64,000 nucleotides of DNA, taken from a virus. The position numbers and the translations under genes are program-made. The stretch's first letter is position 1; every line of letters starts with the position of its first letter. A model generated the notes under the pieces. That model was given only the letters and a program-made list of their open reading frames with translations, made no database searches and had not been told where the DNA came from. Positions 13,696 through 30,328 of this stretch are shown here, piece by piece. The DNA lies in IMG/VR virus record IMGVR_UViG_3300028490_000007, positions 13,123-77,122 of that record; one strand, 5' to 3'.

Positions 13696-14295
13696 ATGAT
13701 TACATGTAAAGAACTAGAAAAGACCGCTGCCTCCGTGGAAGCAGACGGCTTTGAAGATGAAAACCAAGAGAGACTTGAGAAAACAGCACAGGCATTATAC
13801 TTGCTTGACCACCTAGAGAAAGAGATAGCTTCTGACTTTAAGGGTGTTGATTTCGAGAAGACAGCCGGGTTCGGCAAAAAAATGACACGTGGATTAGCTC
13901 AGACAGCAGTTGTTGGTTTGGGCGTAGCTATGGCAGGTAAGCTTGCCGAGCATGCCGAAAAGTCATACGATAAGCATATGTTCAATAAACACCAGAACGG
14001 TCTCATCGCTTTTGCAAGAAGAGAAAACCCTAGCCTTCAAGGTGTAAGCAATGGGAAAATGAAGATGTGGCTACGTAGTGCATATTCTGTTTCTCCCAAA
14101 GTAGCAAACGATCCAATGCTTGCCTCAACCTTTCTAAACACAGCTCATGCCGTAGGTGGTGTTGATTTAAACACTGCCAAGACAGTCAGCGATATAAATG
14201 CAAAAGGGGGAGGAGATTACTCAAAAGTATATGATGCAATTCGTGGATCATCTTCAAATCTCCCCTCTTATGCTATGTCTTCTTCAGGAGCGTAA
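13696..14295 (+). CDS. Putative internal head protein with K-x-A motifs (acidic pro-region + basic/hydrophobic part)
   Basis: LEKTAA, LEKTAQ and FEKTAG in an acidic N-terminus, then GFGKKMTRGLAQTAVVGLGVAMAG. Confidence 0.55.
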   Translation: MITCKELEKTAASVEADGFEDENQERLEKTAQALYLLDHLEKEIASDFKGVDFEKTAGFGKKMTRGLAQTAVVGLGVAMAGKLAEHAEKSYDKHMFNKHQNGLIAFARRENPSLQGVSNGKMKMWLRSAYSVSPKVANDPMLASTFLNTAHAVGGVDLNTAKTVSDINAKGGGDYSKVYDAIRGSSSNLPSYAMSSSGA

Positions 14296-14296
14296 C

Positions 14297-14785
14297 ATGG
14301 GACCACTTGACCAAAAAAATGAAAAAAAGAAACCACAGAAGCCTATCCTCAAGAAAAACAAACCTGTATTTAGTGGCAACTTTGCAGACTTCAATCCTGA
14401 GACAGGAGAAAAAGTAGCAGATGCTCAACAGCAAGGTGCTCTAGCAAAAATGGAAGCTCTTGGTGAGGCGAAGAAAACTAGACGTTCTGCGTCAAACAAA
14501 GAAGAGACACTAAAGGATGCAGCAACCGGTGGTTCTCTATCTTTTCTTGTATCAAATTCAGCGGTAGCAAAAGACAGTACAAGATTTAAGGCTTTAACGG
14601 CACTTCGTAAAAAAGGTCTTATTGGTGTTGGTGGAGCTATTGGGGCAGGTGTACTATCTCAAAGAAAGCAGAAAAGCGAATACAACCGGCAACAAGCTTC
14701 GAGAGAGCTGTTCGCAGGCAAAAAGACTGGTCGTTCAGAAGCGTACAAGAGCTATCTGAATGGTAAGTACAATAAGGACAAATAG
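14297..14785 (+). CDS. Basic protein with Gly-zipper hydrophobic segment
   Basis: ATG at 14297 after AGGAG. Lys/Arg-rich. Contains GLIGVGGAIGAGVL. Confidence 0.6.
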   Translation: MGPLDQKNEKKKPQKPILKKNKPVFSGNFADFNPETGEKVADAQQQGALAKMEALGEAKKTRRSASNKEETLKDAATGGSLSFLVSNSAVAKDSTRFKALTALRKKGLIGVGGAIGAGVLSQRKQKSEYNRQQASRELFAGKKTGRSEAYKSYLNGKYNKDK

Positions 14786-15318
14786 TGTTTGTAAGAGCAA
14801 CTACGGACGATACTAGACTTAAACTCTACAGGGATGTCCTTGCTGTGTTTAAGTCTATTCTTTCTTCTGGTCTTGAAGCATATGGTATAGATACCGAAGC
14901 AGTGATAATAAAAAACACTGTTGACAAGAATGTGAACAGAGCACCTCTTATAGTTTTAGAAAGAGGGGACATGCAGCACGTTCCAAGATCGTTAATGTTC
15001 GGTGAAAAAATCACTGCAGACCTTGTCGCAGGAACTATGAATTCTCATACGGCACACATGATAGAATATCCTATCGAAATAACGTGCTACGGAAACTCTT
15101 ATCTTGAGAGTGAAAAGCTAGGTGGTCTTGCAATGGAAGCTATTCTGACAACAGGTTTAGCTATAATAAAGCAAATGCACCCAAATATAATCGGCTCTGA
15201 GTTTATAGGTTGGGGTAAGTCCGGTCTAGTAGAGGGAAAAGACTCATCTCTTGTCTCTTGTACAGTGCTAGGTAAAGTATTTCTCAAAATTGAGGGATAC
15301 TATTCAATTCAAAATTAA
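14785..15318 (+). CDS. Tail terminator/completion-like protein, putative
   Basis: PLIVLERG...IEITCYGNSYLESEKLG pattern resembles gpU-like neck proteins. GTG start overlaps the upstream TAG. Confidence 0.45.
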   Translation: MFVRATTDDTRLKLYRDVLAVFKSILSSGLEAYGIDTEAVIIKNTVDKNVNRAPLIVLERGDMQHVPRSLMFGEKITADLVAGTMNSHTAHMIEYPIEITCYGNSYLESEKLGGLAMEAILTTGLAIIKQMHPNIIGSEFIGWGKSGLVEGKDSSLVSCTVLGKVFLKIEGYYSIQN

Positions 15319-15329
15319 AGGAACACGAA

Positions 15330-15701
15330 ATGAAAAAAGATATAAATGTAGCAGACTTGGTAGCTTCAGTTACTGACGAGCAAAATGAGAAAAAAGCACT
15401 TAACAAAACTGCTGGACTAGCTTCACTAAAAGAGCGTATGTCTGGAGGAACACTTTCTAAACATGCAGAAGATGCAAAAGTTGTAGCTGATGCGGTAGCT
15501 GATGAGATAGGTGTAAATTCACTTTCTTTGTCTCAACAACTCGAAAAAGTAGCCTCTGAAATGGAAGGTGCAAACTCAGTAGAGGACATTATCAAAATTG
15601 CATCGTCTTTAGACAACTCAGACTTGGCTCATATCTCAACTATCTCAGCAAAAATGGCTGACGTTGTATTTGCTGACCTTCAAAATAAACTAGAAGCATA
15701 A
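15330..15701 (+). CDS. Small helical K-x-A-motif protein (scaffold-like)
   Basis: LNKTAG, LSKHAE, LEKVAS, IIKIAS, AKMAD. Confidence 0.55.
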   Translation: MKKDINVADLVASVTDEQNEKKALNKTAGLASLKERMSGGTLSKHAEDAKVVADAVADEIGVNSLSLSQQLEKVASEMEGANSVEDIIKIASSLDNSDLAHISTISAKMADVVFADLQNKLEA

Positions 15702-15712
15702 GGAGATCCATC

Positions 15713-17539
15713 ATGGCATCAACTATATTAACAGGTAATGATTTCCTTACTAATAGTAACTTGGCTCTAGTTGGCCAAGATGGAAATGTGTCCATTAACA
15801 GAGTGCGTTCAAATGATTATGACGTTGCTCTTGTTTCAAGAGATGCATTCGACTTCACTACGGGTAATAAATCTGTCCGTTTTGTATTCAGCGTGGCTCC
15901 ATATACAACTGCTGCAAGACCGGGTGTTTTCGGTGCCGGTGCAGTAGGTAGATTTGCAAGCCTTGTTGATGACGGAACTTCTATTGAGTGGAAAGGTGAT
16001 ACTTTCAGTTCTCCTTGCCCAGGAACTCCAGATTGTCAAACTATGACAAAATACCAGTGTAATAAATACTACTCTGCAGATGCTTCAAGTTCACACTCTA
16101 TCGTTAAGACAGGTCAGTGCTTTGGAACATCTGGCGACAATACTCATGGGCAACTAGATTTGACTACCGTTGAGACAATAGAAGGTATCGCTTGTGGTAA
16201 TGGGTTTACTGTAATCATGCGTAATACTGGAGTTGTTGAGGTTATCGGAAATGACCAAGGTGGGGACATTGTTGTTCCTGCATCATGTGTCACTTTTGAT
16301 GAGAACGATAGACCCGTCTCTATTGTGGCAGGAGAAGACTTCTTTGTTGTGCTTAAGCGTGACGGTACAGTTGTGTCTGTTGGTTCTATTCTGACAACAG
16401 CATTCTCTACAATCGAAGAAACTATTGTTGAAATGTCAGCAGGTTCAAACTTTGTAGTTCTTCTGTCTTTATCTGGACAGATCTTCAGTATCGGAGGAGC
16501 AGGAGCAAACGGTGAGTTAACTCCACCATCTATAAAGGCATTAAAGGTGTCTGCCAGTGCCAACAGAGCTGTTATTCTTGCAGAGAATGGTAATGTGTAT
16601 GAATGGGGAGAAGGTCTTGCTGATGTCCAGCAGGTTCAATCTATTCCATCTGGCTCACAAGTTATAGATGTTATTGCAGGGGAAAGCTTTTCCATGGCAG
16701 TCCTTAAAGATAGATCTGTTGTTATCTCAGGTTCTGTGCCTGCATATCTTTCTGACATTACAGGAGAGAAGAGTGGTAATGCTGAGAGTATTTCTGAAAT
16801 GGATGATGCCTACGACATGTTCCCTATGCTTAGAAATATAACGGGCGTGAACATCATGGCAGGAGTTCAAGAAGATAATCTTGATAGCACTTATCACAAA
16901 TATGTAGCACCAGATAATACGGTTAAACCTATCGTTGTAGGAAGAGACGGATTTAGTTCTGTATTTACAGGTATACGTGGTGGCTTCAAAGGTGCTATTA
17001 TTGCTAAGACAGACAATGGTGGAGATATGTGTTTTGACCTTAGAGGTTCAGAATACGACCCTTACACAGCAACAGGTCACTTACCAATTTCAACTGACTT
17101 TATCACATCAAATGCGGCAGAGAAATATGAGGTTATAATCTCATTCAGTCCATTTGGTAAGATGATTAAGTTCAGAAAAGTAAGTGGTGAATATGCTCAA
17201 GATATGCCGTTCAAACATTTATCTGTTGAAGAGACAGGATATTCTGCAGGTCGTGTAGCCTTATACGTTAGAAATGCAAAGGACTTCGTTCTTGATTTTG
17301 CAGAAGTTACAGATGAGATAAATGCATCTATTCTTCCTGCTGACATACTGTATAGGGATATGGATACTGCGGTATTACACACTCAGGCTGCAGAGCTAGT
17401 AGTTGACTTGGCTGATGCTGTGGAAACTATTGGTGACGCTGTTACTAAGTCATCTGAGACTGTACGTTCTCTTAATGCGAACTACAAACAAAACTTGGCT
17501 GATATTTTCTCAAGACTTGAGACACTAGAGGCAAACTAA
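15713..17539 (+). CDS. RCC1/BLIP-II repeat beta-propeller protein (fibre/receptor-binding candidate)
   Basis: About 6 RCC1 blades (IACGNGFTVIMRNTGVV, IVAGEDFFVVLKRDGTVVSVG, MSAGSNFVVLLSLSGQIFSIG, AVILAENGNVYEWG, VIAGESFSMAVLKD). C-terminal coiled coil. Confidence 0.8.
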   Translation: MASTILTGNDFLTNSNLALVGQDGNVSINRVRSNDYDVALVSRDAFDFTTGNKSVRFVFSVAPYTTAARPGVFGAGAVGRFASLVDDGTSIEWKGDTFSSPCPGTPDCQTMTKYQCNKYYSADASSSHSIVKTGQCFGTSGDNTHGQLDLTTVETIEGIACGNGFTVIMRNTGVVEVIGNDQGGDIVVPASCVTFDENDRPVSIVAGEDFFVVLKRDGTVVSVGSILTTAFSTIEETIVEMSAGSNFVVLLSLSGQIFSIGGAGANGELTPPSIKALKVSASANRAVILAENGNVYEWGEGLADVQQVQSIPSGSQVIDVIAGESFSMAVLKDRSVVISGSVPAYLSDITGEKSGNAESISEMDDAYDMFPMLRNITGVNIMAGVQEDNLDSTYHKYVAPDNTVKPIVVGRDGFSSVFTGIRGGFKGAIIAKTDNGGDMCFDLRGSEYDPYTATGHLPISTDFITSNAAEKYEVIISFSPFGKMIKFRKVSGEYAQDMPFKHLSVEETGYSAGRVALYVRNAKDFVLDFAEVTDEINASILPADILYRDMDTAVLHTQAAELVVDLADAVETIGDAVTKSSETVRSLNANYKQNLADIFSRLETLEAN

Positions 17540-20500
17540 TGGGTATCGATAACGACTGGTTACTAGAAAACTTATCTGGAAGCTACTCTCTCGGTGCAGT
17601 AGATGATGCTGTTGACTCGCTTATTGGCGAGTACGACACGCTCATCGACAAAATAACTGATGATAAAAGAAACTATATGCTGGAGGCTGTAAGCACTATG
17701 AAAGAAAAGATAATTACTTCGAGGGTCGAAAATGTACTTGAATTGATCGACTCGACACAATTTACGGATGGCGATGAATTCAGGGTCATAGGAACGGGTA
17801 TTACCGTTACGGCACGAAAGTATATCGATGGAGAGACAGGAAGCCCTGCATGGACCATAGAAAAGATAGAGCAAGCAATGAGTGGTTCTTTCGAGGAAGT
17901 TTCAAAAATAGAGACTGCTGCAGTACCAGGTGGGTATTCTAGTGTCTCTAACTCTATGACCAAGAAAGACTTGGCGGAGACTAGGAATGCTATTGCATCA
18001 AACACGGATACAATTACTGTTCCTTTTGCAGAACTTGAGACAGTCGCTACTTCTGACGGGTATTCCATACTTGACATATCTACTTTCATTACGAGGTATA
18101 TCCCGGCACTCACAGAAGGTCAGATAGATCTCGTAAAGCTTAATATAGCATCAGAGCTGAAAAGTGTAAAAGTGTCTGTGTCTAATGTATCCTTTATTGA
18201 ACACAATATGACAGATGGTGAGCTTAAGGGGTCTGGGTCTAAGATTACAGACTATACAGAGACAACAGCAGCCTCGTCAGCATCTCCGTATAGTGATACT
18301 CTACATGTTGTGCTTAACTATGCAGATGACTATGTAGTTAATGTAGGTGGAGTTGACTACACATATTCTGCATCAGACTTTGAAACAGCAGAAGATGTTG
18401 CAGCAGGCATAGAAGGTGAGCTTGGAAACGATACTTCTCTAAACGTATCTACAGATACAGGATATTGGTCTAAAGTGTTTCAGAACGGAAACGGAGATAG
18501 AGTCTTTGGTTGGTATGCTGAAAATACAGATGATGGTGTTTCTTATGAAGTTCAAATGATAGTCCCTACTGGTGTAGCTGACTTTGGCATAGAGCAAGAT
18601 GGTGTAAATCCAGAAAAAATAATAATCACTTTCGAGCATGATGGTTTTGATCCTGTGTATCCACCTATTGCAGATATCAGGGATGCCGTAAATGCTTTTG
18701 CCGATGTGGATATTAGAGTCGTAGTTATGCCAGGGTTCTCTGATGGCGACGAGTATAATACTGCAGACAATGTAACTCTTGAGCAAGGTGCTTCCAAGAT
18801 AGTTATAGAGTCAGCTCAACAGCAAACCATAACTGTATCTACAGCCAAAGCCCACAAGACAAAATTAGTTCACAATACGGACTTCTCTGCAGCTACAGCA
18901 CAGATAGGGGTGTTCGAGGTCGTAAAGTTCAACCCTACAAACACATACTCTGTAACTATTGGTGGACAGCAATTAGATTTAGACCCGTCAGCAAATGGCA
19001 ATGAGTCAGTTGTAGATGAGACGTCTCTTGCTCAAAAAATTGCGTCTATGGTTAATGCTGCGGCACTAGGTGTAGTTGCATCATCTACTGGAACAATAGT
19101 TACTATAGTGGTATCATCTGCAGGCTCTACTATTACAGTGTCTAACTCAGGAGAATTCAATTATGTGCAGCCTATAAGTAGAGACACATTGCTTAGATAT
19201 GACATCAGAAACATTCCTAATGTTAATGCATCTACAATATCTCAATTAAGAAAATCAGGTAATGTGGTAACATCAAAAGGAGAGCCTTTAAATAAAACTG
19301 ATGTGAGCAAATTATCAACTTCAGGGATCGTGTACAGTGACTCATTTATTATGTTTCCACAAGTTCCTACTCTTGTAGACGAGACAGAGAATTTCGTGCA
19401 GAAGATTGGAAGATCAGCAGTTGCACTTGAGCAGACAGTCAAGATAGAGAAAGAGAAAATAGCTACTGCAGGAGATCTTGTTTCTCCGATAGTTAGAAGT
19501 ATGGCTAAGCCATTATTTCCACTTTACTCAACAGATCAAGCAAAGTCTAGTAGATGGTTCTTTGTTGAAGCAGGGGCAAACAGTTTGGCGGCAAGGTCAA
19601 CGATAGGTATCGCATTGTCTACGATAGCTCCAAAAGATTACGAGAAGCTTGTGTTGAAAGATGATAACGCTACATTCTCGTCAGTAAGAGAAAAAAGACT
19701 TCCTAGTGTAGGGCAGAACTATGAGTCTATCATCAGTCTACTTTCCGAGAAGACACAATCATATAATGCAAGTGGGCAGAAAGCAATTATTCCTATCCCC
19801 TCAGATATCGTTTCGTCGAACATGATTGACATAATAGAGGCATACCTAACTAAAGTACAACTTGATGGCTTTATTAAGTTTGCCTTGCTTCCTCAAATAG
19901 TTTCCGGTGACGAGTTTATGAAGATGGACAAACTGAAGGCTGAAGTAGCCAGTATCTTTTCAACACTAGATCTTGTTGGCACGATTGTCTCAGTGAGCGA
20001 TAAATATAGAGTGGTTGTTGACTTTGAAGATTTGGAGCCAGATGTGTGGGCTATTAGAGATGCTTTCACCGGCACAACTTTTGAAGTTGAGCATGTTGTT
20101 CCTGACTTTACATGGGAGACAAAAGCTCCATTCCCTTCAACGGACATAATAGAGCACACAGGTACAAGATATGTAATCAAGCCTGAGATAATGAATAGCT
20201 TTATTATACTAAAAGACCCAGACTCATTATACAAGGCTCTTCTTGAGCTTACCATACAGATAGACGACTCTCTTATGGAGCAAAGGTTTATAGCACTAGC
20301 AGGGTCGTACGTCATTGATGCCTCTAAGGTATTAGAACTGTATGCAGATGAACTGTTCGCATCGTATGTGTTTGGTGTAAACGAGGCCGAGACTCCTCCT
20401 GAAAACAACTACGGGCTTGGGGGCATCCCAATAGATGCTACTGTGACAATGAGTAAGCTTTACTTTAGAAACATGCGTAACCAGGCATTGCCAAAGCCTG

Positions 20501-21711
20501 AGAAAAGATATGCAATGTCAACAGAGCTTACTCTACAGAACTATACCAAGCACCTGTATAGAAAAGTGCATATTGGTGATGTTGACTCAAGAGTTGATAT
20601 TCCATGGAGAGCTGTACTTACAAGAAGAGTATATTCCGGCAGAAAGTGGGTAAATGTTACAACTCTTGGGAACAAGACTGAAGAGACCATAAACAGTTTT
20701 CACATAGAGATAAATAGTGACAGCCCAGTCGAAGATAGAGTATATAGAGAAATAGCTAGAACCGGATATTTCTCATCAAATATAGACCTTGGACTAAACC
20801 ACTTGTCAACTGGAATTTCAACAGAATTTAAAGACTCTGTTTGGAATATACTTATTGATGCTATAGAGATAGCAGACGATGGATCTATTGTGTCCATTAA
20901 CAGTGCTAAGTCATACCTTCAAGCATTGTATCAAGGGTTTGAGCGAATGACGCAGGAGCAGTTTGGTACACTTCTCCTTGGTAGGAGTGCGTATTTTGAG
21001 TTGGAAGACGAGGAGCAAGACGACATATATAGTCCAATCACGACTTTATTCCTAAAGATCCTCTTATACTTCAAAGATAAAAAAGCAACCATAGCATACG
21101 CTAACTGGAATGCTGAGTTTGATAAGATACTAGGTCTACTGTTTATGGATGATGAGTTTGAAGAAGAAATTCTTTCATATGAGGCATTCCTTCTTTGGGT
21201 TGGAGCCATGGGTGCAATGTCTGCATTCTCATGGGAAAGCTCATTGAGTACAGATATCCTAGCTATTGCTGGGTCGGTAGATATGGACGGATATAAAGAA
21301 GCGATACTGAGAGTGGAGACGGCTATGGCTCCAGACTTTGAAAGTGTCAATGAAAATAGTTATAGTACGACAATATCTATGTCCAATGTTGATGGGTTCA
21401 TAATTCCGACCATAAACATAGTAGCAATAAATGTTGCTCCTGTGGCAGATGCTGGACCTGACAAAACAGGTACAACAAGTGTAACTTTTGAGTTGAATGG
21501 ATCTGCAAGTACAGATGCTAACACACTAGACACTTTAACCTACATATGGACTATAGAAACAGACCCTTCGTCTGGAACTGACAGTATTGTCAATTCCGGA
21601 GAAAAGATAGCGAGCTTCACTCCTAGTACAGCAGGGACTTACACAATTAAACTTGTTGTTAGCGACGGAACTCTAAGCAGTGAAGATACTGCAACATATA
21701 CAATCTCATAA
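17539..21711 (+). CDS. Large virion protein with C-terminal PKD/Ig-like domain
   Basis: 1390 aa. C-terminus NVAPVADAGPD...LNGSASTD...LTYIWT...FTPSTAGTYTIKLVVSDG is a canonical PKD-type module. Confidence 0.7.
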   Translation: MGIDNDWLLENLSGSYSLGAVDDAVDSLIGEYDTLIDKITDDKRNYMLEAVSTMKEKIITSRVENVLELIDSTQFTDGDEFRVIGTGITVTARKYIDGETGSPAWTIEKIEQAMSGSFEEVSKIETAAVPGGYSSVSNSMTKKDLAETRNAIASNTDTITVPFAELETVATSDGYSILDISTFITRYIPALTEGQIDLVKLNIASELKSVKVSVSNVSFIEHNMTDGELKGSGSKITDYTETTAASSASPYSDTLHVVLNYADDYVVNVGGVDYTYSASDFETAEDVAAGIEGELGNDTSLNVSTDTGYWSKVFQNGNGDRVFGWYAENTDDGVSYEVQMIVPTGVADFGIEQDGVNPEKIIITFEHDGFDPVYPPIADIRDAVNAFADVDIRVVVMPGFSDGDEYNTADNVTLEQGASKIVIESAQQQTITVSTAKAHKTKLVHNTDFSAATAQIGVFEVVKFNPTNTYSVTIGGQQLDLDPSANGNESVVDETSLAQKIASMVNAAALGVVASSTGTIVTIVVSSAGSTITVSNSGEFNYVQPISRDTLLRYDIRNIPNVNASTISQLRKSGNVVTSKGEPLNKTDVSKLSTSGIVYSDSFIMFPQVPTLVDETENFVQKIGRSAVALEQTVKIEKEKIATAGDLVSPIVRSMAKPLFPLYSTDQAKSSRWFFVEAGANSLAARSTIGIALSTIAPKDYEKLVLKDDNATFSSVREKRLPSVGQNYESIISLLSEKTQSYNASGQKAIIPIPSDIVSSNMIDIIEAYLTKVQLDGFIKFALLPQIVSGDEFMKMDKLKAEVASIFSTLDLVGTIVSVSDKYRVVVDFEDLEPDVWAIRDAFTGTTFEVEHVVPDFTWETKAPFPSTDIIEHTGTRYVIKPEIMNSFIILKDPDSLYKALLELTIQIDDSLMEQRFIALAGSYVIDASKVLELYADELFASYVFGVNEAETPPENNYGLGGIPIDATVTMSKLYFRNMRNQALPKPEKRYAMSTELTLQNYTKHLYRKVHIGDVDSRVDIPWRAVLTRRVYSGRKWVNVTTLGNKTEETINSFHIEINSDSPVEDRVYREIARTGYFSSNIDLGLNHLSTGISTEFKDSVWNILIDAIEIADDGSIVSINSAKSYLQALYQGFERMTQEQFGTLLLGRSAYFELEDEEQDDIYSPITTLFLKILLYFKDKKATIAYANWNAEFDKILGLLFMDDEFEEEILSYEAFLLWVGAMGAMSAFSWESSLSTDILAIAGSVDMDGYKEAILRVETAMAPDFESVNENSYSTTISMSNVDGFIIPTINIVAINVAPVADAGPDKTGTTSVTFELNGSASTDANTLDTLTYIWTIETDPSSGTDSIVNSGEKIASFTPSTAGTYTIKLVVSDGTLSSEDTATYTIS

Positions 21712-21721
21712 GGAGTAAGTA

Positions 21722-21946
21722 GTGAAATATAAAAAACAGGTGGGGCTAGTAACTCACCCGGAACTCAGAGATTTATCCAAGACAAAAACCTTATTCGTTG
21801 ATGGAGTTTCTGCTGCACGTATGGCTCTTGACTCAAAGGATGCCCTTGTCCACGGAGACGTTACAGGAATGTGCGACTTTCTCCTAGCAAAGGGACACAC
21901 CAAGCGACTTTATGATATGATTGCAGACGTAACTATATCACATTAA
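21722..21946 (+). CDS. Hypothetical protein
   Basis: GTG start with AAGGAG SD. Confidence 0.55.
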   Translation: MKYKKQVGLVTHPELRDLSKTKTLFVDGVSAARMALDSKDALVHGDVTGMCDFLLAKGHTKRLYDMIADVTISH

Positions 21947-21955
21947 GGAGAAAAA

Positions 21956-22156
21956 ATGGATTTCCACACTATGTCATGCACGAAGCTGAGAGGCTTTTTG
22001 GAAGGCAAGCGAACCGAATGGTTTACTGACAATATCACACTTACTGATCTTCAACTTATAAAGAGAAGAATGTATCAGTGTAGCCCACAAGTGTATGCAA
22101 AGATGAGTAGATTTTTTGGCTTTGTTGAACACAATATAGCGAGAAAGAGAAAATGA
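21956..22156 (+). CDS. Hypothetical protein
   Basis: AAGGAG SD. ATGA overlap with the next gene. Confidence 0.55.
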   Translation: MDFHTMSCTKLRGFLEGKRTEWFTDNITLTDLQLIKRRMYQCSPQVYAKMSRFFGFVEHNIARKRK

Positions 22157-22368
22157 GATGGCTTCGTGAGAAATTAAATCCTGTATCTAAAACAACATCT
22201 ATACATTCTCAAATGTATGTATTTGATGAGCACACGGAGGCAACTGTATATGCAGACCTTATGACGCAAATAGAGCAGAGTCCAAATCTGGAACTTGTAA
22301 AAGAAGAAGAGAATTGGGATCAAACAGGTATTCTTACGAAGATTGTAACATATAGAAGAAGGAGCTGA
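22153..22368 (+). CDS. Hypothetical protein
   Basis: 71 aa, translationally coupled. Confidence 0.55.
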   Translation: MRWLREKLNPVSKTTSIHSQMYVFDEHTEATVYADLMTQIEQSPNLELVKEEENWDQTGILTKIVTYRRRS

Positions 22369-22369
22369 C

Positions 22370-22699
22370 ATGGCCAAGAGTGACTTAACTAAACTTGAGA
22401 TTTCTGGAGTGCTGAGAAAAATGCATATCTTTAATTCATTAGACATAGAGACTGGTTTAATAGAGGGCAAGACAGATAGTATCAGGAAGTCACACAGGGT
22501 AGGGCTCAACACCTTTGCAAGCGGTGGATACAATGAGAAATTCGGTATCGACATGATGAATAAGATTGTTGGAGGGAATGGCATCATAGCTGTATCTGCA
22601 ACAAGAGGTCTCGACTTCGCTATATTCACAATAGACATAAAGTCTGTCTTTGATGACAGAACACTACAAATTAAATACCCACACGGAGGATATAAATAA
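22370..22699 (+). CDS. Hypothetical protein
   Basis: 109 aa, AAGGAG SD. Confidence 0.55.
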   Translation: MAKSDLTKLEISGVLRKMHIFNSLDIETGLIEGKTDSIRKSHRVGLNTFASGGYNEKFGIDMMNKIVGGNGIIAVSATRGLDFAIFTIDIKSVFDDRTLQIKYPHGGYK

Positions 22700-23379
22700 T
22701 GGCAAATATTGTTATAAATGCAGGTGTTTCTAAGATATACAAGAATAAAGCTTCTGGTATAGCTTCAGCACTTAAAGGGAAAAGTATTATTGGGTTCATG
22801 GATGTGAGACCAGTAAAATACAAAAACAAGACAAAGCACATAGCCGGTCTAAGATATGATAAAAATGAGAGAACATTTTTCCTCACCTCCCCAAAGAGAG
22901 CTGACGCTGTAAATATTGGTGTCTTTATTTCTACATATGACCTTGAACTTGTTCACGGTAAGATTATGGCAAAAGAGGAGCTTCGTGATGTGTACGAGCT
23001 TCCGTCTGTGTCGGCCAAGTTTGAAAGAGGTGGATATGATAAAGAAATGGAAGCTGCACCCGGAGAGCGAACAGTAAACGTGCAGCCAAAAAAAGTAAAC
23101 CTTAAGATCATAGTTGCAACTGCAACAGACAGGCTTATCTTGAGAAACTCCAAGGGGTTTATTTTCACTTGTGACTTCAAAGATGGAAAATGGTATACAT
23201 TGCGACCTGGGACAAAAAAAGCTACAATATACAATATGAAAACAGACGACTTAGAAAGTGCCAGTGTATTTAGAGACTCTCTACCTTTCCCTGCACTTGA
23301 CAGAAAGCTGTTCGACAACTCATCTATGCTTGAATTTGAAGATTTCGACATGGATAAGCACATCAAAGAAAACGTGTAA
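22699..23379 (+). CDS. Hypothetical basic protein
   Basis: 226 aa, TAATG coupling. Confidence 0.6.
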   Translation: MANIVINAGVSKIYKNKASGIASALKGKSIIGFMDVRPVKYKNKTKHIAGLRYDKNERTFFLTSPKRADAVNIGVFISTYDLELVHGKIMAKEELRDVYELPSVSAKFERGGYDKEMEAAPGERTVNVQPKKVNLKIIVATATDRLILRNSKGFIFTCDFKDGKWYTLRPGTKKATIYNMKTDDLESASVFRDSLPFPALDRKLFDNSSMLEFEDFDMDKHIKENV

Positions 23380-23391
23380 CAGGAGACAATT

Positions 23392-24783
23392 ATGGCAAGG
23401 AATTTCGACTTTAAAAAGTATAAAGCTATCGTAGATTATATTCAGGGGTCAACTGGTGGAATAACCACATCAATAGACAACCTCCTTAAGGGGAGCATTG
23501 AACTAAGAAGAAATTCCGTAGCTTCTATTGTTAAGTACAGTACGTCAATCAAAGAGGTTGTTATCGGGAGACTGACATCAACCATCAGGACTGACATATG
23601 GGCTTCCTCTGGTGATATAAAGCTTGCAGTTATCGCAGGTACTACAGTATCATTTGAGGAAGACTATAAATATGAGCCTGACTCTATGTTGCCATCATCC
23701 ATAAACCCAAGCATACTTAATGCTATTGGTGAGAAGTTTGTAAGGAAGAGTAGTGGAGAAATTGTCCTTCAGAGAGAATATTCTCCATCAGTAACAACTT
23801 TTGCAGACGGTGATATTCCAAGCATTCTCTTCCTAAAGGAAAATTATGTAACGAAACAAGATGGAACTTTCTATGGAAAGGTGATCTTAGCCTCTGACTC
23901 TAAGAGTAACCGGAAGTCTGCAGTAAATGGAATTATAGCCGAGAAACTATCTGGGACCTCAAAAGAAAAAAAAGAAATGCGTACCTATTCAAAAAAGGTG
24001 TTGTCCAACTTTTTTGATGTTGCAGATAACGGAAAGATATCAATGTCGTCAAATCCAACAGCTCTCGTTGTTGGACCAGGTGTTGTGCTATCAGATGCAC
24101 CTACAGAGAAGTCATTAATCACGTCTAGTAACATTTACAGTGCAGCAGTGAGAAAAGACCTCTCAAACATGACTCCTTGTGTCATGGAAACAAGTGGAGT
24201 AGGGATAGATAAAGTATTAACAGAAGACGATGCTATGGTTGATATATTATCAATAGGTACAATTACAGAAGATGTTCATACTCTTCCTAAAGACTGTCAG
24301 CCGGGGTACACGACTTCTATAATTCACGCCTCGATTGAAGATATGTCAAACAACTCTGTTCTTGATAAGTATGGTGTGATTGAAATGGAAGGAATACTAA
24401 ACTTAGATAAAGAGCAGTTTAGACCTACTGAAGCTGTCTCTATGTTTACTAGGCTATTTGCCTTGACGCCTCTAGGACACACTCCTGCCCAAGAAGATGT
24501 TGTTAAAGCTCGTGGAAAAACAGCATCTACAATAAAGCTCGTTTATGAAATGGTTGCATCTAGGCTACTTATAGAAAACAGAGGCTTGTTTATTGACAAT
24601 AGAGAATACTTAAATCAAGTAGCCATATCATCACTGTTGTTAAAGCCTACATCGTCCCCGGAATTCAATAGACGACCAGTATTGCAGTCTCTAGTTAACG
24701 ACATAGCAACTGTCAGAGATCTATCTGACATGCTGAATGGCATCACCTCTTCTACTTCCACTGGAAAAGTAAGGAGTTGGTAG
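23392..24783 (+). CDS. Hypothetical protein (tail/baseplate region)
   Basis: 463 aa, AGGAG SD, no recognised motif. Confidence 0.6.
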   Translation: MARNFDFKKYKAIVDYIQGSTGGITTSIDNLLKGSIELRRNSVASIVKYSTSIKEVVIGRLTSTIRTDIWASSGDIKLAVIAGTTVSFEEDYKYEPDSMLPSSINPSILNAIGEKFVRKSSGEIVLQREYSPSVTTFADGDIPSILFLKENYVTKQDGTFYGKVILASDSKSNRKSAVNGIIAEKLSGTSKEKKEMRTYSKKVLSNFFDVADNGKISMSSNPTALVVGPGVVLSDAPTEKSLITSSNIYSAAVRKDLSNMTPCVMETSGVGIDKVLTEDDAMVDILSIGTITEDVHTLPKDCQPGYTTSIIHASIEDMSNNSVLDKYGVIEMEGILNLDKEQFRPTEAVSMFTRLFALTPLGHTPAQEDVVKARGKTASTIKLVYEMVASRLLIENRGLFIDNREYLNQVAISSLLLKPTSSPEFNRRPVLQSLVNDIATVRDLSDMLNGITSSTSTGKVRSW

Positions 24784-26160
24784 ATGGCTTTCTTGGAAGA
24801 TGTGCTCACCCCCATGCTGGGAATATATACAATTACTGCAAGGTCTGAGTTTAATGGATTTGCCCAATGGTATACTATTAACGTAGAGCGTTCTCCAAGT
24901 TCAGAGTTTGCGGCACCAGAGGGATATATTATGACATCCTCAAACGAAGTAATCAGTACGGCAGGAGTAGCGTTAATAGAGACTTATGTACCAAAAATGA
25001 TACTAGATATACAGAAGCTAATTCTTGTACTTCCCAGTCAAGATGCAAAGCCTGACAGCGGACCGACATCAAAGGTTCCAGTGTTCTCATATGTAGACGC
25101 TGCTGATATTGCAGACCATGCTTTAAATATCCCTTATGTTCTTAATGCCCTACTTACTAAAGTCGGGTCTGAGGCAGGAGTTACAATGTCTTCTTCTCTC
25201 CAACAGACATATATATTGTTTGGTCAATACTTTGTAGTCCCACCGTATACGATAACATATATGCTACAAGTAAGCAGGCTTACTCCTATGAGTGCTATGG
25301 GGACAATATATCAAGGGCTAGGACTTGTCCTTAAGCAACAGACTGGAGGGGAATTCGTTCTTACTGACTTGACAACACTAATGGGTGGTCCAGCCACTTC
25401 TGTGAGTAGTGGTAATATCGTGTCGGTTACTTCTGGGTACGACTTTACGAGAATACCAAAGACGCAATCTATTCACTTTGATGCCGGTGGAGACATAACA
25501 GATACCGACTTAACAAAGAGACAAGATGCCGAAGCTATTGGAAACGCAGACTTGGAGAGCCACAGTAATTATGCCAACAACCATTTGCTTACCAGAGGTA
25601 CAGCAGGAGCTGCCGTTTCGGTAGCTGTAGGATCTGATGCTCATATGGTTCAAGAACCAGTGCCTCTTCTTATGACCGCAGGGCTAAAAGATATTATCCC
25701 AGACGGTGATGGTAAAGCTACTATATCACTAGGTGATGTAGAAAAGGTAGTACAGCTTGAGCGTATAAAGAAGGTCAATGACCAACTGTTTGCTAAGGTT
25801 GACATGAATGCTACAGAAGAAGAATGGAACTATGCTGCGGCTAAAGTTGTACTTGTTGCCTTGTTTATGGAGAAACTACAAGCTATAATGAGTCTAAAGA
25901 TATTAATGGCATCATCGTCCAAAACAGCAGTTGTAGATGATACTCTTGTTGAAGCATATGGAAATATTGAGTTCTCTGATGGAGAAGTATCCCTTCAGAA
26001 GGCTGTAATAAGCAATACGGGGGTGGAACAAGTTACTGAAGAGGGGAATTTGGCAGACCACGGATTTGTCATCGGAGTAACTCTGGTACTACAAGCAGGA
26101 CTTCAGACATCAACAGTATCCTATGTAAACTTATCAGAAGCATATGAAGGAATTTTTTAA
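24784..26160 (+). CDS. Hypothetical protein (possible baseplate hub)
   Basis: 458 aa, AAGGAG SD. Function suggested by position and composition only. Confidence 0.5.
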   Translation: MAFLEDVLTPMLGIYTITARSEFNGFAQWYTINVERSPSSEFAAPEGYIMTSSNEVISTAGVALIETYVPKMILDIQKLILVLPSQDAKPDSGPTSKVPVFSYVDAADIADHALNIPYVLNALLTKVGSEAGVTMSSSLQQTYILFGQYFVVPPYTITYMLQVSRLTPMSAMGTIYQGLGLVLKQQTGGEFVLTDLTTLMGGPATSVSSGNIVSVTSGYDFTRIPKTQSIHFDAGGDITDTDLTKRQDAEAIGNADLESHSNYANNHLLTRGTAGAAVSVAVGSDAHMVQEPVPLLMTAGLKDIIPDGDGKATISLGDVEKVVQLERIKKVNDQLFAKVDMNATEEEWNYAAAKVVLVALFMEKLQAIMSLKILMASSSKTAVVDDTLVEAYGNIEFSDGEVSLQKAVISNTGVEQVTEEGNLADHGFVIGVTLVLQAGLQTSTVSYVNLSEAYEGIF

Positions 26161-26456
26161 TGGAAACACTAGACGTAGTAGTAGGTAACACGGTTGACTT
26201 TTTTGTGGACGTAGAGGGTATGACAGACTCCCCTACTGAGGCAAAGATTGAGATTTACAAAAACAAAGTATATGGTATTGGACTAGAAGAAATAGTTGAT
26301 ACTTTCTTGCCATCTCTCATATCGGGGCAGACTATTCAGTTCTCCTTTGATACCGATGTGATGGCACCTATCCCCTCTGTGCTGTATGGGCGTTTTTTTG
26401 TTAACGATAATGGCAAGAAGATAAACGCCTATTTCAAGCTAAAATTTATATACTGA
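26160..26456 (+). CDS. Small beta-sandwich protein (BppU N-terminal-like, tentative)
   Basis: 98 aa, starts VVGNTVDFFVDV, all-beta pattern. Confidence 0.45.
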   Translation: METLDVVVGNTVDFFVDVEGMTDSPTEAKIEIYKNKVYGIGLEEIVDTFLPSLISGQTIQFSFDTDVMAPIPSVLYGRFFVNDNGKKINAYFKLKFIY

Positions 26457-26481
26457 CTTTTGCACAAAGTTAAGGTATAAT
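26453..26481 (+). promoter_or_regulatory. sigma70-type promoter CTGACT-17-TATAAT
   Basis: -35 at 26453-26458, 17-nt spacer, -10 at 26476-26481, then AAGGA SD and ATG at 26518. Confidence 0.6.
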
Positions 26482-26517
26482 TACAGTGTTATTAAACACA
26501 CATAAAAGGAATACCCT

Positions 26518-27360
26518 ATGGCATTAAGAAAAAGAAGAATTGGATCGATTGACGGTCTTACAAACCTACTAGCTAGTAAGGTTGGCGTAGCAGCTATTAT
26601 GGCTGCAAAAGCTGACGTTGAAGCTTCAAACAGTGTTTCTACAGTTGCATCATCTGCAGCAGTGAACGAAATTGTATTAGGTTTAACTAACCAAATCAAC
26701 AACTTGTCTACAGGAATGAATGGACTTATTGATGATGCGGCTGACACAGGTAACACTGTAACTTGGTCTGTTGATAAGATCAAAGGATACGTTGCATCTG
26801 TTGATGACTCTATTGTTGTCTCTGACATCTCTGAGAGAGATAATGTTTCTGACGTATACGACTCATTGATTGCATATGTAATTGATACTACTGGAGATAC
26901 TTCTCTTGGTAATGAAGAAGGTACTGCTGCGGCATATATCTACATTGACGGTTCAGGTTGGGCTCTTTTACAGATCCTTGCACAGAACATTGACGTAACT
27001 CCATTCGTTAAGTATTCTGACATCGTTAACGATCTTACTACTGGTGGTACAATGGTTCCATTGTCTGCTGAGCAAGGTAAAGAACTTAAAAGTCTTGTTG
27101 ACGCTGCGGCTGACTCAACTGAGATTGCTGTTGATAACGGACTTGTTATTACTGGTGACGGATTTGACTCTACATACACTCCTGTTGGAGCTGTTATCGG
27201 AGGAACTGCAGAAGTTGAAGTATCGTCTGGCGTTTGGGACGTTGTTGATATTGTTGCAGGTGCAAATGGTAAAGCATGGCTTTTACTTCCAACTACAGCT
27301 AACGAGTACGATGGTAAAACTTGTCGTATCTCATACCTTAAGTCTTCTACTGAAGCATAA
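26518..27360 (+). CDS. Fibre-like structural protein
   Basis: Contains phage fibre repeat motifs TWSVDKI and DIVNDLTTGGTMVPLSAEQGKELK. Confidence 0.6.
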   Translation: MALRKRRIGSIDGLTNLLASKVGVAAIMAAKADVEASNSVSTVASSAAVNEIVLGLTNQINNLSTGMNGLIDDAADTGNTVTWSVDKIKGYVASVDDSIVVSDISERDNVSDVYDSLIAYVIDTTGDTSLGNEEGTAAAYIYIDGSGWALLQILAQNIDVTPFVKYSDIVNDLTTGGTMVPLSAEQGKELKSLVDAAADSTEIAVDNGLVITGDGFDSTYTPVGAVIGGTAEVEVSSGVWDVVDIVAGANGKAWLLLPTTANEYDGKTCRISYLKSSTEA

Positions 27361-27366
27361 TCTACC

Positions 27367-27388
27367 AGGCAGGGGGCTTCCCTTGCCT
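27367..27388 (+). terminator. RNA hairpin after gene end (no immediate U-tract)
   Basis: AGGCAGGGG-GCTT-CCCTTGCCT, 9-bp stem. Confidence 0.5.
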
Positions 27389-27443
27389 ACCCTCCACATA
27401 AAACCACCCTTTTTACATTGTTTGTTTTTATTAAACTTTACGC

Positions 27444-27449
27444 TATAAT
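27444..27449 (+). promoter_or_regulatory. -10 element TATAAT with T-rich upstream region
   Basis: Lies 45-50 nt upstream of the ATG at 27494, followed by an A-rich leader and AAGGA SD. Confidence 0.55.
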
Positions 27450-27493
27450 ACTGTTGTGGGCAAAACCAAATCAAAACAGAAAGGAATAATGTC

Positions 27494-28939
27494 ATGACAT
27501 TTTTTCAAAAAGTAGCAAGCTTCGGACAAGCAGTTCAAGCAAGCGAGGACGTAGAAAGCATCGTAAAAGTTGCAGCAGAGAGTGATGTATCACGTAACGA
27601 TCTTATTGTATTACACAACCTAACAGTAGGTAATGTATACACAGGTGAAGATATTGTAAAAGTTGCAGAGGACGAAGCAGATAGTATTCTACTTGTAGCT
27701 GTATCAGCATACGAGAAAGTAGCATCTGGAGAAATCGACGAAGCACAAGCTATCTCAATGGTAGAAGAAGCTGGTCTTGTAGCAGACGATCTTTATGACG
27801 TTGCAGGTCTTATTGACAAGCAAGCATCAGAAGCTGGCGTTGTTGCAGATCAAGATGTATGGGAAAAAGTAGCTGAAGCTCATGAGTTCCTTGTAGAAGC
27901 AGGACTAGATCCAGTAGCTTCAATGGAATTTGCTGAAACTTATTCTGCTGCAGAAGATGGAGAAGCTCAAGATAAAGTAGCTTCAGAATTTGACGGGCTA
28001 GACGAAGAGTCTTTTGACAAAATCGCAGAAGCTCATGAATTCCTTTCAGACATTGAAGGTGTTTCGCTTACTGATCTTATGGATGAGTATGACAAAGAAG
28101 CAGGTTCTAAAGTTGACGCTGCAAAAAAAGCACTTAACTCTGTGAAAGACGATCTTTCAGGAGAAAAGTCTAAGCGTGTAGCTAAGTCAATGAAATCTGG
28201 TCTTTGGAATAAAAAATCTAAAGAAGATGTTGGAATGAAGTCATTCGGTGTCTATTCGCAGAAGAACCTTAAAGGTAAGCAGAAAGCTGTAGAAAACCGT
28301 AAGCATTTAGCACGTGGTGGAGCAGCAGTAGCAGCACTTGGTGCAACTGGTGCAGCGGCAGGCTCAATGAGTAAAGAAGCATCAGAAGCATTCCAAGCAG
28401 AAGATGCAGTATGGGAAAAAGTAGCTGAAGCTCATGAGTTCCTTGTAGAAGCAGGACTTGATCCAGTAAATTCAATGGAATTCGCTGAGACTTTCTCTGC
28501 AGCAGAAGATGAAGAGGCTCAAGATAAAGTAGCTTCAGAGTTTGATGGTCTTGATGAAGAGTCAATCGATAAGATTGCTGAAGCACATGAGTTCCTTTCA
28601 GACATCGAAGGTATTTCGCTTACTGACCTTATGGGTGAGATTGAGAAAGAAGCCGGTTCTAAAGTAGACGCTGTTAAAAAAGGTCTAAAGAGAGCTAAAG
28701 ATGACTTTACTGGTGCAAATGCTAAAGCAGTTGATAAGTCAATGAAATCTGGTCTTTGGAATAAAAAATCTAAAGAAGCTGCAGGCGTTAAATCGTTTAA
28801 AGGCTACAGCAACAAGACACTTAAGGGTAAGCAGAAAGCTGTTCATACTCGTAAGAACTTAACTCGTGCAGGTGTTGTTGCCGGTGGTACTGCTGTTGCA
28901 GCAACTGGTGCAGACGCTACATTTAACGGTAGAGGGTAA
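27494..28939 (+). CDS. K-x-A-motif polyprotein-like head protein with internal duplication
   Basis: About 15 K-x-A motifs. Alternates acidic blocks and Lys-rich blocks that end in Gly/Ala hydrophobic stretches. Confidence 0.65.
   Translation: MTFFQKVASFGQAVQASEDVESIVKVAAESDVSRNDLIVLHNLTVGNVYTGEDIVKVAEDEADSILLVAVSAYEKVASGEIDEAQAISMVEEAGLVADDLYDVAGLIDKQASEAGVVADQDVWEKVAEAHEFLVEAGLDPVASMEFAETYSAAEDGEAQDKVASEFDGLDEESFDKIAEAHEFLSDIEGVSLTDLMDEYDKEAGSKVDAAKKALNSVKDDLSGEKSKRVAKSMKSGLWNKKSKEDVGMKSFGVYSQKNLKGKQKAVENRKHLARGGAAVAALGATGAAAGSMSKEASEAFQAEDAVWEKVAEAHEFLVEAGLDPVNSMEFAETFSAAEDEEAQDKVASEFDGLDEESIDKIAEAHEFLSDIEGISLTDLMGEIEKEAGSKVDAVKKGLKRAKDDFTGANAKAVDKSMKSGLWNKKSKEAAGVKSFKGYSNKTLKGKQKAVHTRKNLTRAGVVAGGTAVAATGADATFNGRG
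27857..28939 (+). repeat. Intragenic tandem duplication, 552-nt (184-aa) period
   Basis: GTATGGGAAAAAGTAGCTGAAGCTCATGAGTTCCTTGTAGAAGCAGG at 27857 and 28409. KSMKSGLWNKKSKE occurs in both copies. Confidence 0.95.
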
Positions 28940-28962
28940 AACCTCTACTTAAGGAGTAGACC

Positions 28963-29211
28963 ATGAGCACTTATTCTTTTGCAAGAGATGCGATGTCTGG
29001 CAAGTCTGTCAGACAAGCTAAGAAACTTAGAAAAAGTCTAAAAGCAAGTGGTGCTAACGATGCAACAATGAAAGCAGCTTCTAAAAGCGTAAGGAAATCC
29101 AAAGCGGAAAGTACATACGTTAGAGGAACTGCTGCCGCTGGTGCAGGTGGAGCATACATTGCTACAAAAGACAAGAAAGACGACGATAGCTTTATCCCAA
29201 AAGACTATTGA
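28963..29211 (+). CDS. Small basic protein with Gly/Ala stretch
   Basis: 82 aa, AAGGAG SD, Lys/Arg-rich, contains VRGTAAAGAGGAYIAT. Confidence 0.6.
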   Translation: MSTYSFARDAMSGKSVRQAKKLRKSLKASGANDATMKAASKSVRKSKAESTYVRGTAAAGAGGAYIATKDKKDDDSFIPKDY

Positions 29212-29272
29212 CTTTCACCCTCCCATCCAAGGATGCGAGGACTGAGGGCCCATGAAAAGACAAGGACATAGA

Positions 29273-30328
29273 ATGGACTATAAAACACTAGCCATATCAA
29301 TAGCATCAGCAGAAGACCCTTACGGTGAATTTGCAAAAGAAGCGTCGGATTTAGACGAAGTGCATAAGACAACTCTAGCAAGAGAAGTTAATAAGCAAAT
29401 GTTTATAAGCAGACTAGACGGACGAGAAGGTGATGGACATATCGACTTCGACGTTATAGAACCTGAGTTGAAAGATACTCATGTGACAAAAAGTGTAGGA
29501 GATCCAACTGTGGAAAAAGTAGCATCAGAACAGCCTAGCAAATCTCCTCTTGAGAAGAGAGCTATGGTTGAAGACTCTATGTTTGTCGTTGCACCAAGAC
29601 AGACTATTAAAGCAAAATCAACAACAGGTGGAAGTGCTAAAACTTTCAGAAAAATAGCAGAGCATATTATAGACGATGACTTAGATAGAATTTCAGACAA
29701 AGAGAAACAAGCTTTTGATGAAACTAAAGTCAGAGCTGTAGCTTTATTGAATGATATGTTTGGTGCAGAGCTAGAAGGCATCACTAAGATGGCTGACGAT
29801 GCCTCTGAGCTTAGATCCGTGATAGGTGCAGCCATTGGTAAGGGATTGAGTAATGTAGTCCCTGAGATAGTAGCTATATCAAATGACGCAGAGAGTACGC
29901 TTCTTAAGGTGGCATCAGTTGATTTAGATGACACTAGAGCTAAGGCTGTCGATGCTTCACTTGACTATATGGTTAATCTGAACGAAGCAAAAGCATTGGT
30001 GAAACAAGCTTCCACACAACAAGAACTTGATAAGCTTGCATTCATCGCCCCATTGCTAGGGGGAATAGCTCGCTTGGGTTTTAATGTAGCCAAGGGTGCA
30101 GCCAAAGGTGGCCGTGCTCTTGGCAAGGGTGCGTGGGGGACAATGAAGCTACCTGGTAGAGTTACCGGTGCGACTAAGAACCTGCTCACTTTGAAAAACC
30201 CAGCTAAGGGTTGGAAGGATGGAGGGGGCTTAATGACAACATTAGGAACCACTGCTGTTCTTGGAGGGGCTGCTCTTACAGCAGGTCCAACTATGGATAA
30301 ATATCAAGAAATGACACAACGCATATAG
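29273..30328 (+). CDS. K-x-A-motif head protein with cationic amphipathic C-terminal segment
   Basis: ATG at 29273 after AAGGA. About 9 K-x-A motifs in an acidic region, then FIAPLLGGIARLGFNVAKGAAKGG...TAVLGGAALTAG. Confidence 0.6.
   Translation: MDYKTLAISIASAEDPYGEFAKEASDLDEVHKTTLAREVNKQMFISRLDGREGDGHIDFDVIEPELKDTHVTKSVGDPTVEKVASEQPSKSPLEKRAMVEDSMFVVAPRQTIKAKSTTGGSAKTFRKIAEHIIDDDLDRISDKEKQAFDETKVRAVALLNDMFGAELEGITKMADDASELRSVIGAAIGKGLSNVVPEIVAISNDAESTLLKVASVDLDDTRAKAVDASLDYMVNLNEAKALVKQASTQQELDKLAFIAPLLGGIARLGFNVAKGAAKGGRALGKGAWGTMKLPGRVTGATKNLLTLKNPAKGWKDGGGLMTTLGTTAVLGGAALTAGPTMDKYQEMTQRI

Follow-up and report, generated by a model that had tools for sequence, protein, structure and literature searches.

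What kind of phage protein reverses its charge within a single chain, at a short motif that is repeated along its acidic part? The question is raised by three genes, g13696, g27494, and g29273, located between positions 13696 and 30328 of the window analyzed here (the whole stretch of 64,000 nucleotides, positions 13,123 to 77,122 of the IMG/VR record IMGVR_UViG_3300028490_000007). Each encodes acidic residues followed by a basic region with a Gly/Ala patch, and two neighbors, g14297 and g28963, encode free-standing basic proteins with a patch of the same kind. We think it fairly probable that these proteins are precursors of prohead-core or internal-head proteins of an Arash-like large myovirus. 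As a kind, head-core and internal proteins processed by a protease are known; the novelty lies in the putative cleavage code, which ends in Ala, and in the fusion of acidic and basic parts. The genes and their modules are the following.

13696–14295, plus strand: g13696 (family F1), with an acidic leader at residues 1–57 (charge -8) that contains three K-x-A sites, followed by residues 58–199 (+8)
14297–14785, plus strand: g14297 (family F2), basic (+18) and free-standing, with a conserved site P-x-T-G-E-K-V/I-A (residue 41) and a Gly/Ala patch, GVGGAIGAG
27494–28102, plus strand: acidic module 1 of g27494 (family F3), residues 1–203 (-41), with 9 K-x-A sites that would yield pieces of 8–36 residues
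28103–28381, plus strand: basic module 1 of g27494, residues 204–296 (+13), Lys-rich, with a terminal Gly/Ala patch and then an SKEA↓S site (here and below the arrow marks the putative cut)
28382–28654, plus strand: acidic module 2 of g27494, residues 297–387 (-25), a duplicate of the second half of module 1
28655–28939, plus strand: basic module 2 of g27494, residues 388–481 (+16), with a terminal Gly/Ala patch and then the stop codon
28963–29211, plus strand: g28963, a free-standing basic protein of 82 residues (+10) with the Gly/Ala patch GTAAAGAGGAY
29273–30040, plus strand: N-terminal part of g29273 (family F4), residues 1–256 (-16), a conserved helical domain with 9 strict K-x-A sites
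30041–30328, plus strand: tail of g29273, residues 257–351 (+10), Gly/Lys-rich and predicted to be disordered

All the sequences quoted in an initial annotation of the window are found where it placed them, and the charge flip that it described at the K-x-A motif is exact in the three proteins, occurring each time at a hydrophobic-x-K-x-A site. In g13696, the boundary is FEKTA↓GFGKK (at nucleotide 13867), and the predicted mature part of 142 residues consists of a short basic linker, the conserved Gly/Ala patch GLGVAMAG, and a helical domain. In g27494, the acidic-to-basic boundaries are YDKEA↓G and IEKEA↓G. The acidic/basic unit is indeed present twice in this protein, with an internal duplication of 552 nucleotides (84% nucleotide identity over 300 nucleotides and 76% amino acid identity); this repeat exceeds the period limit of Tandem Repeats Finder (500) and was found by a separate repeat search. 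In g29273, the boundary is LDKLA↓FIAPLL (at nucleotide 30041). The start of this protein at 29273 is backed by the N termini of its homologs, and the longer reading frame from 29252 contains 10 strict sites. The tail opens with an amphipathic helix (FIAPLLGGIARLGF...) and closes with a Gly/Ala patch and a conserved GP-x-M-x-KYQ motif. The other two proteins, g14297 and g28963, are basic and patch-bearing, as annotated; the stretch ahead of the conserved GEKVA site of g14297 is basic (+4) and not acidic. In AlphaFold2 models, the helical domains are confident and the tails are disordered, with predicted local distance difference test values of 80–90 for residues 90–155 of g13696 and for residues 1–50 and 121–250 of g29273.

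The strict form of the motif is [LIVFMWY]-x-K-x-A, for which observed and expected sites were counted in each open reading frame (ORF) of the 77-kb contig of which the window is a part. The motif is in excess in g27494 (12 observed vs. 2.1 expected), g29273 (10 vs. 1.1), g13696 (3 vs. 0.66), g15330 (4 vs. 0.46), g44980 (9 vs. 0.7), and g47973 (2 vs. 0.09), and few copies are present in most other ORFs of the contig. The logo derived from 46 strict sites in nine proteins reads L/F/I, E/D, K, V/E/T, A↓S/E/A/G, E/D, with L/F/I at P5, E/D at P4, K at P3, A at P1, and S/E/A/G at P1′. The sites are concentrated in the acidic/basic head proteins, in a protease, in a scaffold-like protein, and at the N terminus of the capsid protein. 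The additional genes concerned are these.

7618–8925, plus strand: probable prohead (head maturation) protease (phrog_18299, "head maturation protease", E value 1.5e-12)
15330–15701, plus strand: g15330, a small acidic protein (charge -8) with 4 strict K-x-A sites and without basic cargo
44980–45954, minus strand: g44980, an acidic scaffold-like protein (charge -37) near the capsid gene, with 9 strict and 12 loose K-x-A sites
46529–47506, minus strand: major capsid protein, with an N-terminal site FVKEA↓A at residue 26

The protease contains five strict sites (1.1 expected), one of them N-terminal (MTKTA↓S, around residue 31) and several after the catalytic part. The presence of its own sites at the N terminus and of four or more past the catalytic part suggests that the protease is trimmed at both ends. 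In the structure of T4 gp21, activation involves the self-cleavage of an N-terminal peptide (PMC9958956), and proteases of the T4 and phiKZ types trim themselves after the catalytic part (PMC5694885). In the capsid protein, the N-terminal K-x-A site is kept at the same position in phages Arash (LVKEA↓G) and D181 (LTKEA↓G). Since the motif also turns up in the protease, the scaffold-like protein, and the capsid protein, processing in the prohead is the natural reading, and K-x-A is likely the cutting signal of the phage's own head protease. Judged from its statistics and conservation, the motif sits at the predicted propeptide/mature boundary and recurs in the capsid protein, the scaffold, and the protease itself. 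The T4- and phiKZ-type head proteases published to date all cut after Glu (PMC5694885), in the code (L/I/A/S/G)-x-E. The motif enriched here ends in Ala, with Lys at P3, so that the putative code would represent a different specificity.

By tblastn, the protease matches Arash gp222, D181_0277, and gp19 of phage G. Among its more distant relatives, those in Erwinia phage Yoloswag and Ralstonia phage RSL1 are annotated as head maturation proteases, and others occur in Bacillus phage G and in many mycobacteriophages (e.g., Alice and Myrna); a sequence search of the Protein Data Bank with this protease returned no relative. A prohead protease is encoded alongside the acidic/basic proteins, as in the head modules of T4-type processed core proteins. 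The small acidic g15330 is a probable core or scaffold-like accessory protein. The C terminus of g44980 carries a K-x-A site (QEKEA) followed by a hydrophobic/basic peptide of 10 residues, and D181_0278 ends with LVKEA↓AAAGK.

The source of the window is an uncultured phage of ~190 kb, an Arash-like large myovirus. Metagenomic homologs of the window proteins are found on contigs of 183–192 kb, and other genes of the window encode a fragment of a split RNA polymerase beta′ subunit, a GroEL-like chaperonin, and a large terminase. Among cultured phages, Salmonella phage Arash and Vibrio phages D69, D148, and D181 come closest (terminase identity 29%–31% and protease identity 32%–39%). Just upstream of g13696, three small ORFs occur at 12694–13560 on the plus strand, coding for a membrane protein of 83 residues, a protein of 101 residues with an N-terminal membrane helix and a charged coil, and an overlapping protein of 116 residues with a lipobox (LTGC). 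This trio looks like a holin and spanin lysis cassette, placed amid virion genes.

The charge and motif pattern is conserved in 15 to 24 metagenomic homologs per family. The boundary K-x-A sites form invariant or nearly invariant columns in the alignments. In the 16 homologs of F4, five sites are invariant, and K-x-A positions make up many of the unchanging columns, with K22 and A24; K82, A84, and S85; K212 to S215; A246 (K244 being nearly invariant); and K254 and A256, while the flanking columns vary. Over all homologs, the motif is 14 to 16 times enriched in the acidic parts (136 vs. 9.9 expected and 102 vs. 6.4) and occurs at chance level in the basic parts (5 vs. 6.0 expected and 16 vs. 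12.9). The order acidic, basic, Gly/Ala patch is kept in 16/16 homologs of F4, with tails of 59–136 residues charged +7 to +15.

In F1, 15 close homologs conserve two leader sites and the Gly/Ala patch. The family is homologous to Arash gp221 and D181_0276, both encoded immediately upstream of the protease. A profile search extends F1 to at least 238 clusters (at 50% identity), in which the conserved part comprises the Gly-rich patch and the helical domain. The leaders of the family range from ~10 to >400 residues, and the motif lies at most 40 residues upstream of the Gly-rich patch in 74 of 118 members (15.9 expected; median distance 17 residues). Ten diverse F1 relatives had no family match among PHROGs, and two F1 relatives had no match by tblastn to cultured phages; Arash and D181 are the only cultured carriers found. 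The homologs of F2 in two metagenomic loci, L006 and L007, adjoin an F1 homolog and show no variation in the GEK(V/I)A site or in the GGAI patch.

In F3, each of the 24 homologs has ~200–225 acidic residues followed by 75–160 basic ones and, at the end, a Gly/Ala patch. Conservation is highest in the acidic part, which aligns well; the basic part cannot be aligned and has conserved only its composition. Seven homologs have two units, like g27494. In many cases the two units of one protein (g27494 and P0035–P0041) resemble each other (45%–77% identity) more than they resemble the matching units of other phages (43%–64%), and no orthology signal from unit 1 to unit 1 was seen across these proteins. 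This pattern points to concerted evolution (by gene conversion) or to repeated independent duplications. Loci L006 and L007, from two distant relatives, encode only the acidic module as their F3 protein, without cargo; locus L004 is without the gene. Just upstream of these cargo-less proteins, a basic protein of 141–148 residues is inserted (L006 8780–9226 and L007 8802–9227), with a nuclease-like motif GLPDI...FEVK that is, by eye, of the PD-(D/E)xK or VRR-NUC type.

The initial annotation had taken the acidic parts for spacers that neutralize a cationic cargo until they are clipped off in the prohead. The clipping agrees with the conserved K-x-A at the charge switch and with the occurrence of the motif in the protease, scaffold-like, and capsid proteins. 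The role of mere spacer does not fit: the acidic parts are the best conserved and the best folded in the predictions, and they are free-standing in some relatives (L006 and L007).

Searches outside these families gave little. PHROG and Pfam scans of all six proteins produced no meaningful matches, g29273 found nothing among cultured phages by megablast or tblastn, and IMG/VR scans with g29273 and g13696 found no relatives. Foldseek against BFVD gave nothing significant (best E values 0.02–0.08, with TM scores below 0.3), and the ESM Atlas gave no usable leads.

In the cultured phages, the counterparts, which lie among Arash gp220–gp225 and D181 0275–0280, flank the protease, scaffold-like, and capsid genes; synteny was read from five JGI loci together with Arash and D181. 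Arash gp220 and D181_0275 share the design of g29273, with about ten sites followed by NKEA↓FIGSVV... or LKEA↓FVSAA.... The acidic and repeat-bearing gp223 (D181_0278) and the basic gp224 (D181_0279), which has Gly/Ala patches, mirror g27494 and g28963; the resemblance of g28963 to gp224 and D181_0279 is one of composition and position. In Arash and D181, two adjacent genes located between those for the protease and the capsid protein encode the acidic and the basic partner separately, whereas in the window phage the two are fused. Arash gp220, gp222, gp223, and gp225 and their D181 counterparts carry the same K-x-A motif as the window proteins. The annotation of all of gp220–gp225 and D181 0275–0280 goes no further than "structural" or "hypothetical". 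Arash gp220–gp225 were all detected in virion preparations by mass spectrometry, with 80%–100% coverage (PMC10585845). The proposal that basic fragments are left in the head agrees with the T4 precedent.

In T4, gp22, gp67, and gp68 are cut into small peptides, and other members of the core shed a propeptide, remain in the head, and pass into the host together with the DNA (PMC9958956). Like the T4 prohead core proteins (gp21, gp22, gp67/gp68, IPI–III, and Alt), the window proteins are encoded in a head module around a prohead protease. The order of genes in Arash and D181 (small core proteins, protease, scaffold-like protein, two or three small genes, capsid) resembles that of T4, which is 67-68-21-22-23. 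There are also differences. The T4 motif ends in Glu (L/I-x-E) and the window motif in Ala (hydrophobic-x-K-x-A). The window propeptides are long (57–256 residues), conserved, and multi-site; in T4, by comparison, the capsid targeting sequence spans 10–20 residues. In the window phage, unlike in T4, one polypeptide joins acidic to basic modules and repeats them. The internal proteins of T4 have, to our knowledge, no Gly/Ala patch, unlike the parts that would be retained here. The window proteins fall outside the T4 IPI–III, gp67, and gp68 families, and the resemblance is functional only.

The giant phages phiKZ, 201phi2-1, and SPN3US, with proteases of the gp175/gp245 type, also have long multi-site propeptides. 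Many inner-head or ejection proteins of the SPN3US/phiKZ type have propeptides of >100 residues with extra internal sites, which in SPN3US are thought to yield fragments small enough to exit the capsid; the protease cuts its own C terminus as well (PMC5694885). These proteases cut after Glu (A/S/G-x-E), and the proteins are unrelated in sequence to those of the window. Neither a charge-flip nor a Gly/Ala-patch theme is known to have been described for these phages, and PMC10052503 does not contain the terms "acidic" and "charge".

If the window proteins are head precursors, each precursor would enter the DNA-free prohead along with acidic scaffold or partner modules. The head-maturation protease (7618–8925) would then cut after Ala in hydrophobic-[E/D]-K-x-A↓S/E/A/G. 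The acidic, helical, and conserved parts (the g13696 leader, the acidic modules of g27494, and the N-terminal domain of g29273), which may act as assembly, targeting, or charge-balancing modules, would be chopped into pieces of ~8–60 residues and cleared like the scaffold fragments of T4. The basic fragments with Gly/Ala patches would be retained in the head (~93–94 residues from g27494 and 95 from g29273), as would the 142-residue mature g13696, g14297, and g28963. There they could offset the charge of the DNA, with which they may exit at infection. The analysis itself establishes the charge architecture, the enrichment of the motif, the conservation of both, the synteny with the protease, scaffold-like, and capsid genes, and the presence of Arash counterparts in virion preparations; the cuts, the fate of each fragment, and any role after ejection are inferred.

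Several observations weigh against this reading. No depletion of the motif was seen in the basic cargo of the homologs, where it was sought; with the motif at chance frequency, avoidance of the cleavage motif by the cargo is ruled out, and no selection for an intact mature peptide can therefore be seen. The window proteins have no similarity in sequence or fold to the internal proteins of T4 or phiKZ (PHROG, Pfam, and BFVD). The alignment of F4 with Arash gp220 by hhalign has a probability of 4.6%, so that homology is not statistically established. In the Arash preparation, the coverage of gp220, gp221, and gp223 is 95%–100% (PMC10585845), and the acidic parts were therefore detected too. The same preparation listed 116 annotated phage proteins, metabolic enzymes included (PMC10585845), and for that reason it cannot separate mature heads from precursors.

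Neither g29273 nor g27494 nor g14297 had a match when searched against the complete Arash and D181 genomes, and homology beyond F1 is not established. When profiles were compared, F4 against Arash gp220 and F3 against both Arash gp223 and the scaffold-like protein of the window, only weak, non-significant collinear matches resulted. The Arash paper makes no mention of a protease or of cleavage (PMC10585845).

The detection of acidic regions in the Arash proteome would also suit proteins that are not processed at all. The K-x-A would then be a structural motif of helices in acidic helical proteins, and the charge flip a boundary between domains. On the other hand, the capsid proteins of three phages share the motif at a conserved N-terminal position, and in the protease it comes after the catalytic part; T4- and phiKZ-type phages cut at these places. 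The motif columns, moreover, are invariant while their neighbors vary. Because of this placement in the capsid protein and the protease, we regard the absence of processing as extremely improbable.

The position of the basic regions invites another explanation, in which the basic Gly/Ala tail binds the inner capsid shell and tethers the acidic scaffold-like domains, the cut at the boundary freeing the scaffold. The C-terminal tails of the scaffolding proteins of herpesviruses and P22 offer a parallel. The tails of the window proteins are C-terminal and set off from the scaffold-like part by an invariant site, and g44980 also ends with a K-x-A site and a short hydrophobic peptide. The layout of the ends of g44980 and D181_0278 is similar to that of the herpesvirus maturation site that releases the capsid-binding tail of the scaffold, and the sites of the herpesvirus assemblin resemble the P1 Ala and P1′ Ser of the K-x-A motif. 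However, basic Gly/Ala proteins free of any scaffold do exist (g14297, g28963, D181_0279, and Arash gp224), the basic regions are long (59–136 residues) and very variable in length, and the acidic protein of L006 and L007 has no tail at all. A role as shell anchor is, in our view, very unlikely.

The fate of the retained fragments after ejection is a separate matter. The basic Gly/Ala fragments could be membrane-active, like antimicrobial peptides (AMPs), and, once ejected with the DNA, insert into the inner membrane of the host as a conduit, pore, or depolarizer. This concerns a later step and can coexist with the origin of the fragments as head precursors. The best evidence is at the start of the g29273 tail, where the first ~30 residues form a conserved amphipathic cationic helix with a hydrophobic moment of 0.63 (on this scale, magainin has 0.51 and melittin 0.55). 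This amphipathy is stronger than that of shuffled sequences in 15/16 homologs despite sequence change; it is borderline (near-significant vs. shuffles) in Arash gp220 and D181_0275. The hydrophobic moment, which the initial annotation proposed to plot, is favorable for the g29273 tail. A clearly AMP-like segment is, however, limited to this one protein of the five, and basic amphipathic helices also bind DNA or acidic proteins. The F3 basic region, moreover, keeps its composition and not an alignable sequence.

The Gly/Ala patches bear on the same point. Among the 94 ORFs of the contig, they occur only in the proteins discussed here, once in g24784, and three times in the following gene.

32323–37914, plus strand: tape measure protein of 1863 residues, with three consecutive Gly-rich hydrophobic patches close to the N terminus, at residues 98–152

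The recurrence of such small-residue patches, with some GxxxG, in the five proteins and in the tape measure protein counts in favor of a membrane role, and weak hydrophobicity would be needed if the fragments are to be soluble in the producing cell. The initial annotation related them to the glycine-zipper helices of membranes. Their predicted insertion energies lie between +3.4 and +9.3 kcal/mol, compared with -0.2 to +1.7 for the true membrane helices of neighboring genes, and speak against this, with a median of ~+5 in all three families and 0/149 F1 relatives below 0. The canonical zipper (G/A/S)xxxGxxxG is absent from the patches of g13696 and g27494 and partial in the others. By pattern and by insertion energy, the proteins are thus not transmembrane glycine-zipper channel formers, and no bacteriocin, holin, or pore-former family was matched in PHROG or Pfam. 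We consider such activity in the host membrane unlikely as the role of these fragments. A membrane role after ejection is nevertheless possible, because the helix of the g29273 tail is amphipathic and because weak hydrophobicity suits solubility in the producing cell.

The label of bacteriocin or AMP-precursor-like polyproteins is not supported. The order of an anionic pro-part and a cationic Gly/Ala part, seen in all of them, is that of AMP and class II bacteriocin precursors, with AMP-like amphipathy clear only at the start of the g29273 tail. Unlike in such precursors, the acidic part is conserved and autonomous and the genes lie among virion genes. Separate genes encode the acidic and the basic part in Arash and D181. 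Neither an export leader (double-glycine or Sec), nor a C39 peptidase, nor an ABC transporter, nor a bacteriocin family was matched in these proteins with Pfam, and the leader with dedicated transporter, peptidase, and immunity genes that characterizes class II bacteriocins is missing among the neighbors. The AMP/bacteriocin reading is only an analogy. An established example of the idea behind it is found elsewhere: in the adenovirus capsid, the viral protease frees basic DNA-associated peptides and a membrane-lytic protein from their precursors (pVII, pX/mu, and pVI). The lineage, protease, and motif are unrelated to those of the window phage.

A wider form of the same thought is that a widespread clade of large phages packages weakly hydrophobic Gly/Ala peptides that acidic partners hold soluble and inert in the prohead, that are activated by the protease through an undescribed Ala-specific code, and that co-assemble after ejection in the host envelope as a DNA conduit or depolarizer. 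It would extend to the Arash-like phages and, for the F1 module, to at least 238 protein clusters, and it would make a phage counterpart of adenovirus protein VI or of the nodavirus gamma peptide. We hold it to be decidedly unlikely.

Returning to the interpretation as processed head precursors, the K-x-A signature would, if the cuts are true, predict head-internal or ejected proteins from sequence in a large and almost uncharacterized group of phages, to which Arash and D181 are the two cultured entry points. The fused precursors suggest a simple loading rule, in which acidic modules replace DNA in the DNA-free prohead and are then cut up as the DNA takes over. The Gly/Ala patch, present in the five proteins and, with the F1 module, over 238 clusters, is an unexplained but testable hallmark of these head proteins. 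Whether the fragments serve in DNA condensation, in assembly, or in membrane entry bears on how large myoviruses deliver their DNA.

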